A DNA stretch of 64,000 nucleotides from Mycobacteriales bacterium (GTDB lineage Bacteria; Actinomycetota; Actinomycetes; JAFAQI01), in NCBI GenBank assembly GCA_035547515.1, contig DASZUS010000045.1:171291-235290 (forward strand). Reading direction: 5' to 3'. The notes under the pieces are model-generated. The model worked only from the letters and a program-made list of their open reading frames with translations. It was not told the DNA's origin and ran no database searches. The translations under genes and the position numbers were made by a program. This document shows positions 12,637 through 59,586 of this stretch, piece by piece. Position 1 is the stretch's first letter. Each line of letters opens with the position of its first letter.

Positions 12637-12709
12637 GCCCTCTTAGCTCAGGGGATAGAGCAACCGCCTCCTAAGCGGTAGGTCGGCAGTTCAAATCTGC
12701 CAGGGGGCA
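12637..12709 (+). tRNA. tRNA-Arg (anticodon CCT)
   Basis: Manual cloverleaf fold: acceptor GCCCTCT/AGGGGGC (one G-U), D-arm GCTC/GAGC, anticodon stem ACCGC/GCGGT with loop CTCCTAA, T-arm GGCAG-TTCAAAT-CTGCC, discriminator A. Confidence 0.85.
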
Positions 12710-55884: not shown

Positions 55885-56075
55885 GCGCGTCGCATTCACA
55901 CCGCCGAACCCGTCCGGTGAATGCGTTGCCCTTCAATCCCAGATGGACGGGGCCGGGGACCCACAGAGTTCCTACAAGCAGAGTTCTTACCCAGCTTTCG
56001 GAGTCCTACTCCTTGGGGTGAAGCCAGCGCTTGCGCTGGCCGGGTGATCCACTCATCCGAACCCGACAGCTAACT
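55885..56075 (+). promoter_or_regulatory. Candidate cyclic-di-AMP (ydaO/kimA-type) riboswitch in the 5' leader of an NlpC/P60 hydrolase gene
   Basis: About 190-nt structured leader with pseudo-symmetric halves (CCGAACCCG twice; GGTGAATGC / GGGTGAAGCC / GGGTGATCC; GGGGACCCA; 3' CCGAACCCGACAGCTAACTCGG). Classic genomic context for ydaO in actinobacteria. Confidence 0.5.
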
Positions 56076-56099
56076 CGGCAGGCGTCCGGAGTGGACTTC

Positions 56100-56822
56100 A
56101 TGCTGCCTGCGCGCCCTCACACGCTGCTTCGATCCGCATTCCTCACCCTGCTCACCGCCGGGTTGGTCGCCTCCGCGACCGGGACTGCGCTCGCCGAGAC
56201 ATCGCCGAGCCCGACCCCACTTCCGGCCGGATCCGTTCCGGCCGGCTCGGCACCGACCGACCCGGGTACCAGCGGTACGACGCCGGCCACCCCGGCCGAC
56301 CCGACGACCCCGGCCAGCCCGAGCGGGCCGTCGGTGCCGACCGCGAGCCAGCCGCTCATCACCTTCACGCTGCCCCAGGCGAGTGCGCACCTGCGCTACG
56401 AGCACGAGCGGCTGCGCCGGCGCGAGTGGCGCCAGCGTGCCGTGCGCGCCGTGCTGGCGGAGGCCCGCAAGCAAGCCGGCAAGCCGTACGTGTACGGCGC
56501 CGACGGGCCGCGCTCGTTCGACTGCTCTGGACTGGTTCGCTACGTCTTCGGGCACGCGATCGGCAAGTGGCTGCCGCACAACGCCGCCGCGCAGTACTCG
56601 GTGATCAAGCACATCAAGCGCCGCGACCTCGAGCCCGGCGACCTGGTATTCCAGGCCGCCGGCGGCTACCCGTTCCACGTCGGGATCTACGCCGGTCACG
56701 ACAAGTGGTGGCACGCGCCGCACACGGGGGCCGTCGTGCACAAGCAGACGATCTACTCCGGCCACCTGGTCTACGGCCGGGTGCTCACCACCAGGCTCGC
56801 GACGCTGCGCACCCGCCGCTAG
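56100..56822 (+). CDS. Secreted NlpC/P60 family peptidoglycan hydrolase with Pro/Thr-rich linker
   Basis: GGAG RBS then ATG 56100; signal peptide; C-terminal NlpC/P60 core (YVYGADGPRSFDCSGLVRYVF...H). Confidence 0.85.
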   Translation: MLPARPHTLLRSAFLTLLTAGLVASATGTALAETSPSPTPLPAGSVPAGSAPTDPGTSGTTPATPADPTTPASPSGPSVPTASQPLITFTLPQASAHLRYEHERLRRREWRQRAVRAVLAEARKQAGKPYVYGADGPRSFDCSGLVRYVFGHAIGKWLPHNAAAQYSVIKHIKRRDLEPGDLVFQAAGGYPFHVGIYAGHDKWWHAPHTGAVVHKQTIYSGHLVYGRVLTTRLATLRTRR

Positions 56823-57724
56823 GCGGCCGCGGCGGCGCTGACCTCGAGCAGGCGGCGTACGGCGGACACGACGTAGGCCGGGTCCTGCGTCACGTCGAAC
56901 CACGTCACGACCGCGAGCCGCCATCCTTCCGAGGTGATCGCCGCCCAGCGCCGGCGGTCGCCGCGAAACGGGTCGCGGGAGTTGCGGTAGGCATAACCGT
57001 CGCACTCGAGCACCGCGCGGACCTCCGGCCACGCGAAGTCGACGAAGCCGACCCACCCGGTCGCGCGGCTCTTCAGCGAGAGCTGAGTGACCGGCACCGG
57101 CAACCCGCTGCGCCACAGCAGGACGCGAGTGAGCGACTCGAGGACGCAGCCGCTCCACGGGTCGACCAGGCCGGCCACGGTCTGCGCCCGCAGGCGGCCG
57201 GGGCCCCTCGCCGCCCGAGCGACCGCGGCGAAGTCGGCGTCGGTGAAGTGGTGCTGCCGGATGAAGGCGTCGACCACCGCGACCGCTTGATCGGCCGGCG
57301 AGTGCCGCGCGATGTCGAGACAGGTCCGCAGAGGAGTGGTGACCAGTGCTCCGTCGACGAGCTCGACGTCGGTACGCGCGAGGTCGGCACGGTGCAGGCG
57401 TACCCCCGGCAGGGCCTCGGCGAGACCGCCGCGGGCTCGCGGGACGGTCAGGTGGATCTGGCTCAGCGGAGCGGGAAGCTCGACGCCCCACCACGCGGCG
57501 GCTGACTCGAAGCTGATCGCGGCGTACCAGTCCTTGGCGATCCGCCGCGGGTCGGGCAGCGGCTCGCCGATCGCATAGACGCCGCGCGCGATCCTGGCGA
57601 CCGACCCGCGGCTGACCAGGTCGCCGAGCGCCCGTGGGCTGATGCCTGTTGCCAGCACCTGCGAGCGGGTCAGCACCCCGCGGTTGTCGACGGCGATCGG
57701 GGCAAGAAGGGTGAGCGGATCCAC
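56819..57724 (-). CDS. DUF559 (Vsr-like endonuclease fold) protein with AbiEi-like N-terminal domain
   Basis: GTG start at 57724; N-terminal RGVLTRSQVLATGISPRALGDLVSRGSVARIARGVYAIG; C-terminal DUF559-like region. Confidence 0.65.
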   Translation of the reverse strand: MDPLTLLAPIAVDNRGVLTRSQVLATGISPRALGDLVSRGSVARIARGVYAIGEPLPDPRRIAKDWYAAISFESAAAWWGVELPAPLSQIHLTVPRARGGLAEALPGVRLHRADLARTDVELVDGALVTTPLRTCLDIARHSPADQAVAVVDAFIRQHHFTDADFAAVARAARGPGRLRAQTVAGLVDPWSGCVLESLTRVLLWRSGLPVPVTQLSLKSRATGWVGFVDFAWPEVRAVLECDGYAYRNSRDPFRGDRRRWAAITSEGWRLAVVTWFDVTQDPAYVVSAVRRLLEVSAAAAA

Positions 57725-57803: not shown

Positions 57804-58079
57804 CTAGCCGCCCGCGACCGCCGGGATGATCGAGATCGACGCGCCGTCCGGCGTCGGCGTCTGCAGGCCCTCGGCGAAGCGCACGTCGTCGTCGTTGACG
57901 TAGATGTTGACGAACCGGCGCAGCTTGCCGTCATCGTCGAGCACCCGAGCCCGGATGCCGGTGTGGTCGGCCTCGAGCGCGTCGAGCACCTCGGCGAGGG
58001 TCGCGCCCTCGGCCGTGACCTCAGCAGCACCCCCGGTCAGCGGACGCAGGATCGTGGGGACGCGGACTGTGACGCTCAT
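57804..58079 (-). CDS. ThiS/MoaD-family sulfur carrier protein (CysO/MetO-like) with C-terminal Gly-Gly
   Basis: 91 aa, beta-grasp-like, ends ...AVAGG; ATGA overlap with the upstream ThrC-like gene. Confidence 0.8.
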   Translation of the reverse strand: MSVTVRVPTILRPLTGGAAEVTAEGATLAEVLDALEADHTGIRARVLDDDGKLRRFVNIYVNDDDVRFAEGLQTPTPDGASISIIPAVAGG

Positions 58080-59326
58080 TCGTGCAATCCTGCCGCACGG
58101 AACGCATCGAGCGTCGCCGGGATCGTCGCGGTCGGCCGCGCCACCGGCTCCACCGCGTCCAGCGTCTTCAGCCCGTCCCCGGTGTTGAGGATCACGGTCT
58201 CGGCTTCGGGATCGAGCTGGCCGGACGCGAGCAGCTTGCGCAGCGTCGCGACGGTCACGCCGCCCGCCGTCTCACCGAAGATCCCGGTGGTGCGCGCGAG
58301 CAGCTGGATCCCCTCCACCACCTCGGCGTCCGTCACGTCCTCGACGGCTCCGCCGGTACGACGTACGACGTCGAGCGCGTAGGGCCCGTCCGCCGGGTTG
58401 CCGATCGCGAGCGACTTGGCGATGCCGCTGGGACGGACCGGCTGGACCACGTCGTGCCCGGCACGGAACGCCGCTGACACTGGCGAGCAGCCGGTCGACT
58501 GCGCGCCGAAGACCCGGTACGGCGAGGCGTCGGCCAGCCCGAGCTTGCCGAGCTCACGCCACGCCTTGTCGACCTTCGTCAGCAGGGAGCCGGACGCGAT
58601 CGGGATCACGACCTGCTCCGGCAGCCGCCAGCCGAGCTGCTCGGCGATCTCGTAGCCGACGGTCTTGGAGCCCTCCGCGTAGAACGGCCGGACGTTGACG
58701 TTGACGAAGGCCCAGGGCAGCTCGCCGGCGACCTCGGCGCAGAGCCGGTTGACGTCGTCGTAGGAACCTTCGACCGCAACCAGCGTGCCCCCGTAGACCG
58801 CGGTCGTGACGACCTTGCCGGCCTCGAGGTCGTGCGGGATGAACACCACCGACTTCATGCCGCATGCGGCGGCCGCCGCTGCGACCGCGTTCGCGAGGTT
58901 GCCGGTCGAGGCGCACGAGAGCACGTCGAAGCCGAGGGCGCGAGCCGCATTGGCGGCCACTCCGACCACCCGGTCCTTGAACGAGTGCGTCGGGTTGCCG
59001 CTGTCGTCTTTGACCCACAGCGACTTCATGCCGAGCTCGGCGGCGAGGTTGTCGGCGCGCACCAGGCGAGTCATGCCGACCTGCAGGTCGACGACCGGTG
59101 CGGCCGGCAGCAGCCCGGCGTAGCGCCACATGGTCTGGGGCCCAGCGGCGATCGACTCACGGGTGACCAGCCGCTGCAGGTCCTCGTCGTAGGCGATCTC
59201 CAGGGGCCCGAAACACATCTCGCAGACGTGCAACGGACCGATCTCGTACTGCGTGCCGCACTCGCGACAGACCAGGTGAGAGGCAGAACCGAACGCGGTG
59301 CGCTCGAGCACCGAGGTGTCAGACAT
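58076..59326 (-). CDS. Threonine synthase-like PLP enzyme with N-terminal Cys4 zinc ribbon (MetM-like candidate)
   Basis: Fold-type II PLP motif HSFKDR; N-terminal CRECG...CEMC; 416 aa; RBS GGAAGG; lies downstream of a SAM-I riboswitch. Confidence 0.85.
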   Translation of the reverse strand: MSDTSVLERTAFGSASHLVCRECGTQYEIGPLHVCEMCFGPLEIAYDEDLQRLVTRESIAAGPQTMWRYAGLLPAAPVVDLQVGMTRLVRADNLAAELGMKSLWVKDDSGNPTHSFKDRVVGVAANAARALGFDVLSCASTGNLANAVAAAAAACGMKSVVFIPHDLEAGKVVTTAVYGGTLVAVEGSYDDVNRLCAEVAGELPWAFVNVNVRPFYAEGSKTVGYEIAEQLGWRLPEQVVIPIASGSLLTKVDKAWRELGKLGLADASPYRVFGAQSTGCSPVSAAFRAGHDVVQPVRPSGIAKSLAIGNPADGPYALDVVRRTGGAVEDVTDAEVVEGIQLLARTTGIFGETAGGVTVATLRKLLASGQLDPEAETVILNTGDGLKTLDAVEPVARPTATIPATLDAFRAAGLHE

Positions 59327-59334
59327 CAAAGAGG

Positions 59335-59460
59335 CCTTCCGTCCTCATCTTCCCCCCGGACGGTTGCCCGGAGGCCGGATGTGGCACCTGCCCGAGACGG
59401 GTGGTTGCCGGGGCTTCAGCGGGCCGGATCCCTCTGCCCCTCTTGATGAGTGCACGACTC
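59335..59460 (-). promoter_or_regulatory. SAM-I (S-box) riboswitch in the 5' leader of the ThrC-like/ThiS-like operon
   Basis: Minus-strand RNA reads CTCATCAAGAGGGGCAGAGGGATCCGGCCCGCTGAAGCCCCGGCAACC...GGTGCCACATCCGG...GGAAGATGAGGA. This is near-identical to the S-box core CTTATCAAGAGAGGCAGAGGGACTGGCCCGATGAAGCCCGGCAACC...GGTGCTAAATCC...AGATGAGAG. Confidence 0.85.
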
Positions 59461-59586
59461 GAGAGTCGCGCGTGATCAGTGTGCCACAGGAGCGGATGGC
59501 ACATCCGCTGGTTTTTCCGAGCGCGTGGAAGATCGCTGTGCCTATCGGGGGGCGGATGGGACATCCGCTCTTCATAGTGTGGGGGC

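Follow-up and report, generated by a model that had tools for sequence, protein, structure and literature searches.

A predicted SAM-I riboswitch beside the ribosome-binding site of a metM-metO operon in a Mycobacteriales bacterium

In Actinobacteria the base stems of riboswitches were found to overlap the translation initiation site (PMC1262725), and a layout acting at the level of translation has been reported as typical of the group (PMC2258182, PMC1262725). Among SAM-I (S-box) riboswitches it is represented by the type with “direct translation attenuation” (Barrick and Breaker 2007, PMC2258182; “group 1”, PMC10907184), which possesses no separate expression platform, carries a purine-rich ribosome-binding site (RBS) at or beside the 3' side of the P1 helix, with the Shine-Dalgarno sequence (SD) inside P1, and has its start codon within about 20 nt. 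SAM-I(Xcc) of Xanthomonas campestris likewise combines a SAM-I aptamer with control of methionine synthesis mainly at translation, and does so through hairpins P5-P7, a long platform separate from the aptamer that provides explicit anti-SD and anti-AUG strands and also senses tRNA-fMet (PMC7270179). A preQ1 aptamer fold was described to attenuate translation without any pairing to the SD, even from up to 10 nt away (Schroeder et al., PMC10018353). Regarding the genes concerned, a recent preprint describes MetM and MetO of Streptomyces albulus as a thiocarboxylate-dependent route to homocysteine (bioRxiv 10.1101/2024.10.14.618325), and GapMind points out that MetM “is often misannotated” as threonine synthase (bioRxiv 10.1101/2024.10.14.618325). 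A SAM riboswitch upstream of S. albulus metM was reported as well (Hasebe et al. 2024, as cited in PMC12172450). Earlier publications already cover the riboswitch class, its direct-attenuation layout in Actinobacteria and its association with metM-metO. The stretch of DNA analysed here, hereafter the window, comprises 64,000 nucleotides of contig DASZUS010000045.1 from the Mycobacteriales/Frankiales-like genome of an uncultured actinobacterium, and the leader under study lies on its minus strand.

When the whole window was compared with all Rfam models, RF00162 (SAM riboswitch, S-box leader) matched at 59452-59342 on the minus strand with 80.7 bits (E = 2.1e-17; gathering score 44.4) and over the full length of the model (positions 1-108 of 108); it was the top-scoring member of clan CL00012 at this site and was retained after clan competition. 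A sequence-only reading had named an S-box riboswitch on this strand and an RF00162 scan as the way to check it, and the match bears out this assignment: judged from its sequence and from the covariation given below, the element is a SAM-I riboswitch. The SAM-IV and SAM-I/IV variants of the same clan, which combine a SAM-I-like core with a different pseudoknot and have no canonical P4 between J3/4 and P1, were ruled out, as a canonical, covarying P4 is present and RF00162 won the clan competition.

Along the minus strand the leader is ordered ...GUGCA-CUCAUC-AAGAGGGGCAGAGGGAUCCGGCCCGCUGAAGCCCCGGCAACCACCCGUCUCGGGCAGGUGCCACAUCCGGCCUCCGGGCAACCGUCCGGGGGGAA-GAUGAG-GACGGAAGGCCUCUUUG-AUG. The 5' strand of P1 (CUCAUC, 59450-59445) pairs with GAUGAG (59349-59344), the switching strand, which was placed by the sequence itself, by the RF00162 alignment and by the alignment of relatives. 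The remaining elements follow the RF00162 alignment. P2 (GGGGC/GCCCC and GGG/CCC, with the K-turn consensus nucleotides) extends over 59440-59410, where AGAGGGGCAGAGGGA represents P2 and the K-turn region and CCCCGGCAACC the 3' strand of P2 running into P3; the P2 loop CCGG (59427-59424) is the 5' half of a pseudoknot and pairs with CCGG at 59378-59375. P3 is minimal (59409-59383), consisting of GGCA-A-CC-A-CCCG and CGGG-CA-GG-UGCC around a UCU loop, and is followed by J3/4 (ACA, 59382-59380) and by UCCGG, which holds the 3' half of the pseudoknot down to 59375. P4 (59379-59350) is made up of the pair U59379-A59350, the stem CCUCCG/CGGGGG and the 10-nt loop GGCAACCGUC. The strongly conserved consensus positions (AUCAAGAG, GAGGGA, UGAAG, GGCAACC, GGUGCC and AGAU-AG) are all matched bar one, the sole mismatch at sequence level being A to C in J3/4 at 59381. 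The motifs quoted in the sequence-only reading are likewise all found on the minus strand, but GGTGCC, which had been ascribed to P4, is the 3' strand of P3. ACATCC corresponds to J3/4.

With the SAM-I family as modelled in RF00162 the window thus shares the four-way junction of P1-P4, the K-turn consensus in P2, the pseudoknot between the P2 loop and J3/4, the core nucleotides and a methionine-pathway gene downstream. It differs in its P1, which comprises just six Watson-Crick pairs with the two outer pairs of the model mismatched, and in its J3/4, which reads ACA and not AAu. Unlike SAM-I riboswitches of Bacillota, it has no terminator/antiterminator platform.

Relatives were collected as loci encoding homologues of the protein behind the leader; species-representative genomes supplied 80 of them and metagenomes another 80. 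Among the genome loci, an Rfam scan of 35 placed SAM-I immediately ahead of the metM homologue in 34, and in the remaining 45 its core was found by a strict pattern, so that the predicted association of SAM-I with metM-metO extends across Actinomycetota (79 of the 80 species-representative loci). The strict core pattern was also present in 59 of the 80 metagenome loci, many of which come without upstream sequence. The closest relative locus is that of the MAG DASZTV010000006, and the score of the window aptamer lies within the range of the relatives (44.7-85.8 bits).

The fold was tested in a MAFFT alignment of the window and 26 relatives with a short or medium P3 (n = 27). P1-P4 and the pseudoknot between the P2 loop and J3/4 were paired in 96.6% of cells and 11 pairs of this canonical structure varied on both sides, values that none of 500 shuffles matched; the same structure slid by 1-3 columns as a control was paired in only 37-51%. 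Within it, P1 was paired to 97.5%, the second and third helices of the alignment, which are listed for P2, to 100%, and the pseudoknot helix to 99.1%, with one of its pairs being CG in 18 relatives and AU in eight. Four pairs of P3 varied on both sides among relatives, and both sides changed in five of the six stem pairs of P4. The P1-P4 junction claimed from the letters of the window is accordingly found again in its relatives, and four-way junction and pseudoknot, as predicted structures, are backed by covariation.

The gene behind the leader (58076-59326, minus strand, with its ATG at 59326) encodes 416 amino acids and matches PF00291 with 222 bits and TIGR00260 with 261 bits (cutoff 167), from which the NCBIfam name threonine synthase derives. 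Its product belongs to the PLP enzymes of the threonine-synthase family and carries an N-terminal CxxC...CxxC zinc ribbon, which is without counterpart in solved threonine synthases; these align only from residue 63-84 onward. It is followed by a gene for a metO-like sulfur carrier of 91 amino acids with ThiS/MoaD fold (57804-58079, minus strand; PF02597 62.9 bits, NF041918 64.4 bits), which ends in ...AVAGG and hence in Gly-Gly, and whose start shares 4 nt (ATGA) with the stop of the preceding gene. From gene context and literature the 416-aa gene was identified as a putative metM, and the predicted pair matches the MetM/MetO thiocarboxylate route from O-phosphohomoserine to homocysteine. The arrangement appears to be that reported for S. 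albulus, with a ThrC-like MetM and a ThiS-like MetO in one operon and a SAM riboswitch upstream. It recurs in a Streptomyces locus of the relative set (L065), the leader of which has a P3 of 71 nt with the anti-RBS GCGAGGCUC, an element that is missing from the window. For annotation, the riboswitch flags the downstream “threonine synthase” as MetM of the methionine pathway and the small protein encoded next to it as MetO, the sulfur carrier.

Directly 3' of GATGAG follows GACGGAAGG, and the SD GGAAGG (59340-59335) is located 3 nt after P1 and 8 nt before the start codon ATG (59326-59324), which itself lies 17 nt after the 3' strand of P1. This spacing is conserved: in 79 of the 79 related leaders measured the start codon is found 9-20 nt past GAUGAG, and a purine-rich SD 0-6 nt past P1. 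A terminator does not fit into leaders in which the start codon follows P1 so closely, and the minus strand showed no terminator-like site between 57000 and 60500, so that the earlier claim of a leader ending at the RBS holds. That control is translational, as is typical of actinobacteria, also stands as the best inference, based on this layout in the window and the 79 leaders together with the literature (PMC2258182, PMC1262725). A terminator-like hairpin with T-run at 59491-59509 was rejected for this leader, since it faces the plus strand and no gene of that strand ends there; it is one of two copies of a palindrome.

As in the SAM-I type with direct attenuation, the window has no separate expression platform, its purine-rich RBS is placed beside the 3' side of P1 and its start codon within about 20 nt. 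In contrast to that type, its best SD lies 3 nt outside P1 and not inside, and a 5' hairpin, P0 (59471-59452), abuts P1 on the other side, ending 1 nt before it. The platform of SAM-I(Xcc) cannot be accommodated in the 17 nt between P1 and ATG. An extension of P1 into the SD was considered and rejected, as no subgroup has matching bases next to P1 (CA..GA, AC..CG, CG..GA). A hairpin formed locally within the tail (GAAG-GCCU-CUUU) was likewise dismissed as a means of sequestration, with just four weak pairs and a modest effect of constraint folding.

We consider it rather probable that the element acts as a SAM-dependent OFF switch on the initiation of metM-metO translation and does so by direct translation attenuation, i.e., by direct occlusion. 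SAM-I membership, gene context and the conserved spacing of P1, SD and AUG are features of the compared loci themselves, whereas we infer the OFF logic, the action on translation and an occlusion that is steric rather than due to base-paired sequestration; it would be steric because the SD lies 3 nt outside P1 and not within it. Binding of SAM at the four-way junction would lock the short 6-bp P1 (59450-59445 with 59349-59344), which P0 would flank on its 5' side. With the SD 3 nt and the ATG 17 nt past P1, the ribosome-binding region would then sit tight against about 130 nt of compactly folded RNA, the SD emerging where P0, P1 and the folded junction meet, and the 30S subunit could not load. 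At low SAM, P1 would open, the purine-rich GGAAGAUGAGGACGGAAGG (about 20 nt) would become single-stranded and metM-metO would be translated. Mechanistic precedent for a compact ligand-bound fold that works without SD pairing is provided by the preQ1-I type III riboswitch of Carnobacterium antarcticum (PMC10018353), although it differs from the window in ligand, fold (an H-type pseudoknot) and phylum, so that the likeness is one of mechanism only. In folding models the unpaired probability of the SD decreased from 0.57 without constraint to 0.21 with the aptamer fold enforced, which is a weak indication; the leader fold is no more stable than that of shuffled sequences (z = -0.53). A structure 3 nt upstream of the SD does not necessarily block 30S binding, and steric occlusion may be insufficient in this family of metM leaders, since most relatives use a base-paired anti-RBS located in P3. 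The window copy, without such an extension of P3, might regulate weakly or by some other element.

In P3 the window departs from its relatives, with 27 nt compared to 45-104 nt in most of them. The 3' strand of the P3 extension in relatives contains a tract, most often GCGAGGCC, that is complementary to the spacer between SD and AUG, GGCCUCGC. A helix of at least 7 contiguous base pairs between P3 extension and tail can be formed in 54 of 83 distinct leaders with long P3, as opposed to 7.7% with shuffled tails, and more than 20 versions of its sequence occur in which a change on one strand is matched on the other, such as CGGCGAGG/CCUCGCCG, CACGAGGCC/GGCCUCGUG, GACGAGGCC/GGCCUCGUC and AGCGGCGAG/CUCGCUGCU. 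P3 pairs better with the tail of its own leader than with those of other leaders (0 of 300 permutations; 143 of 300 for P4 as control). In an ordinary MAFFT alignment, built without regard to the helix, pairing was seen in 75.1% of cells against 36-44% after sliding, and 49 cells changed on both sides compared to 25.5 +/- 4.2 in shuffles, a level that 0 of 500 shuffles reached. As the tail leads away from P1 and the 3' strand of P3 heads inward next to it, so that the two are antiparallel, geometry would allow the helix to form with P1 closed. In some Nocardioidaceae it is a large P3 loop that exposes CCUCC instead.

The window is without the P3 tract, and its tail still has AAGGCCUC, half of the partner GGCCUCGC. 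Two members of the same clade with 80-82% protein identity, L004 and L006, possess the P3 extension. Since these two keep the extension and the window tail keeps AAGGCCUC, a loss in the sublineage of the window would be the parsimonious explanation. A substitute anti-RBS partner was sought for the window in P3, P4, the 5' leader and the tail, and among the candidates in these regions none was conserved and none exceeded chance. The candidate in the window's own P3, CCGUC on the 5' strand and loop, was rejected, as its orientation would be parallel to that of the tail and it lacks conservation in L056, L083 and L087.

These comparisons allow a tentative reading, to which we give somewhat less than even credence, of the metM leaders as riboswitches with a platform nested in the aptamer, in which a pseudoknot of P3 extension and GGCCUCGC spans P1 and of which the window is a minimal variant. 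SAM, by clamping P1 and P3 next to each other, would favour the nested anti-RBS, and the window copy, having lost the extension, would have to rely on steric occlusion alone. No description of a P3-nested anti-SD in SAM-I was found in the searchable literature, which is weak evidence of novelty, and the P3-nested anti-RBS of relatives, with the window as a variant lacking it, is the sole part of the present results that might be new; the window alone adds nothing new to riboswitch biology. If the nested anti-RBS is real and undescribed, it would constitute a new architecture of the SAM-I expression platform, for which the window offers a built-in loss-of-element control. Copies with a covarying P3-nested anti-RBS and minimal copies with just P1 beside the SD make a natural comparison, by which the share of translational control due to base-paired sequestration could be tested against that of a steric effect.

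Other explanations place control of the window copy in different pairings of the leader. According to the sequence-only reading, CCGUCC (59363-59358), i.e., five nucleotides of the P4 loop and the first of the P4 3' strand, pairs with GGACGG (59344-59339) and thereby sequesters the RBS, which we regard as very unlikely. The six nucleotides are indeed exactly complementary, but of 5000 shuffled versions of the 21-nt tail, 1477 (30%) also had 6 nt or more in perfect complementarity to the interior of the aptamer, and the best tail-aptamer duplex did not stand out from shuffles (p = 0.57). In the alignment of 27 leaders the six pairs were formed in 52.4% of cells, slightly above the shuffle mean of 44.8%, with a pairing level that 1 of 500 and a covariation that 3 of 500 shuffles reached; slid controls, however, came to 30-48% (maximum 47.6%), and all six pairs were complete only in the window and in L001, the protein of which is 93% identical. 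Four relatives that share the GCAACCG loop show partial matches of 4-5 of the six. The two strands do not change together: five relatives (L005, L084, L085, L086, L090) keep the GCAACCG loop of P4 with differing tails, five others (L004, L056, L081, L083, L087) keep the tail (G)ACGGAAGG with differing P4 loops, and co-evolution of P4 and tail was not seen when own and permuted tails were compared in the short-P3 group (67 of 300) and in the window's clade (302 of 1000). The helix would moreover cover just the first two bases of the SD, and GGACGG shares nucleotide 59344, the last of P1, with that helix, leaving no linker. In SAM-I structures the P4 loop is situated at the opposite end of the coaxial stack of P1 and P4, about 14-15 stacked base pairs away. 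Starting on the last nucleotide of P1 and reaching for the far end of the stack, the pairing would exclude a closed P1 and with it the SAM-bound state, the one expected to hide the RBS. On the grounds of shuffling, column pair counts and permuted duplex energies it was therefore rejected as unsupported and as sterically incompatible with P1. The same loop:tail pairing, or one of CAUCAAGAGG from the 5' strand of P1 and J1/2 with CCUCUUUGAUG of the start region, could alternatively form only in the absence of SAM and set the threshold of the switch as an anti-P1 element, which appears unlikely to a considerable degree. Once P1 is open, an H-type pseudoknot of P4 stem, loop:tail helix and a 9-nt linker (GAAGAUGA-G) would be sterically feasible, and the unconstrained minimum free energy (MFE) structure does replace P1 by CAUCAAG:CUUUGAUG, the aptamer fold and this alternative being nearly isoenergetic (-84.1 and -85.5 kcal/mol, 1.4 apart). 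Against it, both pairings would partly cover SD or AUG in the presumed ON state, and neither is conserved past the closest relatives or lies above shuffles; the pairing CAUCAAGAGG:CCUCUUUGAUG, taken from the MFE structure, was rejected for hiding the AUG in that state and for its lack of conservation.

Two further possibilities concern the level of control and the state of the copy. Control might act mainly on the transcript, by Rho-dependent termination or nuclease access in the early coding region, with inhibition of translation absent or secondary. For the window copy no base-paired sequestering helix was found, and it has been suggested that riboswitches may act via the processing or degradation of RNA (PMC2258182), but the conserved spacing of P1, SD and AUG and the covarying anti-RBS of relatives point to the initiation region, and we hold transcript-level control to be unlikely. 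The window copy might also be a weakened or non-regulating relic, with an intact aptamer and with the anti-RBS platform of the P3 extension lost in its lineage. The minimal P3 of 27 nt beside a tail that retains half of the GGCCUCGC used by L004 and L006, and the C in J3/4 where A is the consensus, would agree with such a decay, whereas the aptamer matches its relatives in score, and forms with short P3 are found in many independent relatives with full conservation of the aptamer and the same SD spacing, which implies continued selection; we hold a relic to be extremely improbable. Direct occlusion by the SAM-bound fold is the reading that we prefer for the window.

On the 5' side of the aptamer, P0 has the stem GCGCGACU/AGUCGUGC closed by CUCG (-12.5 kcal/mol). 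A stable hairpin in this position, ending 1-2 nt before P1, is present in 17 of 17 members of the window's clade, and its stem sequence varies on both strands among the window, L002, L003, L056, L081, L083 and L087. Upstream of it a putative -10 element, CACACT (59483-59478) with a TG before it, coincides with a conserved TGGCA-ACT block in relatives; a sigma-70 promoter scan gave no matches. Transcription would start at about 59471, the base of P0, if this -10 element, which was read from conservation alone, is accepted; for most relatives the predicted start is at the first base of P1. An anti-RBS within P0 was tried and rejected, as the window has two mismatches and a permutation test across the clade was not significant (353 of 1000). 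In L081, L083 and L087, GCCUUC/ACCUUC of P0 is complementary to GAAGGC/GAAGGU.

In most metM leaders of the relatives, an anti-RBS tract, GCGAGGCC, together with covarying variants of it, occupies the 3' strand of the P3 extension. This tract is complementary to the spacer between SD and AUG immediately past P1, as can be seen in the extensions and tails of the related metM loci L013 (2327-2485), L004 (2344-2491), L153 and L114, and the pairing between P3 extension and tail in the relatives' leaders is backed by shuffles, permutations and pair counts. Pairing of the extension with the SD-AUG spacer would be a pseudoknot across P1, by which the expression platform would be nested within the aptamer. 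At 59409-59383 of the window, where P3 has its minimal form, the anti-RBS of the P3 extension is missing. The window also deviates in J3/4, which reads ACA, with the C at 59381 (minus strand), instead of the AA- of the SAM-I consensus and nearly all relatives; among the latter, the C is common only to L073.

Upstream of the aptamer, a conserved box, ACAACTGAATAC / ACAACTTCATAT, was observed within the 12 nt adjoining P1 in most relatives (e.g., L013, L014 and L068). It is probably the -10 region, in which case the mRNA of most species would begin directly with P1. The window's clade has a related ACTGA block some 27 nt upstream. In the window, P1 is preceded at a distance of one nucleotide by the hairpin P0 (59452-59471, minus strand), which has a stem of 8 bp and a CUCG tetraloop. 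All 17 members of this clade possess an equivalent hairpin, with stem sequences varying on both strands. The transcript probably starts at this hairpin, which may stack on P1 or protect the 5' end of the mRNA.

The intergenic region between the divergent genes otsA and metM contains the 17-bp palindrome GCGGATG-N3-CATCCGC in two perfect copies at a spacing of 60 bp, the module being situated at 59489-59509 and 59549-59569, and also at 59474-59485 and 59531-59542. Since GGCACA--GATC comes after each of the two copies, the arrangement looks like a duplicated operator-plus-promoter-like module. Neither the rest of the window nor any of 160 related loci contains a further occurrence of it. The copy closer to the riboswitch would coincide in part with the -35 region of the promoter postulated for it, and this copy is also terminator-like on the plus strand.

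A c-di-AMP riboswitch of the ydaO/yuaA type (RF00379, 67 bits) was identified at 55917-56098 on the plus strand, preceding an ORF for an NlpC/P60 peptidoglycan hydrolase (56031-56822), the true start of which is probably farther downstream. A c-di-AMP riboswitch is present at comparable distance in five related loci (L001, L002, L003, L005 and L006), and the neighbourhood is therefore conserved. In the ORF downstream of metO (56819-57700, minus strand), the N-terminal domain is AbiEi_4 antitoxin-like and the C-terminal part matches REase_MTES_1575 weakly; this ORF has nothing to do with methionine metabolism. Within metM itself, the first ~60 codons (59326-59140, minus strand) encode an N-terminal CxxC...CxxC zinc-ribbon segment of the MetM-like protein, for which no counterpart was found in solved threonine synthases and which matched the NinF model weakly, slightly under the cutoff. 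Finally, the Rfam scan revealed a tRNA gene at 12637-12709 on the plus strand (66.4 bits), and because its anticodon loop reads CUCCUAA in the alignment, an assignment to tRNA-Arg(CCU) is suggested.
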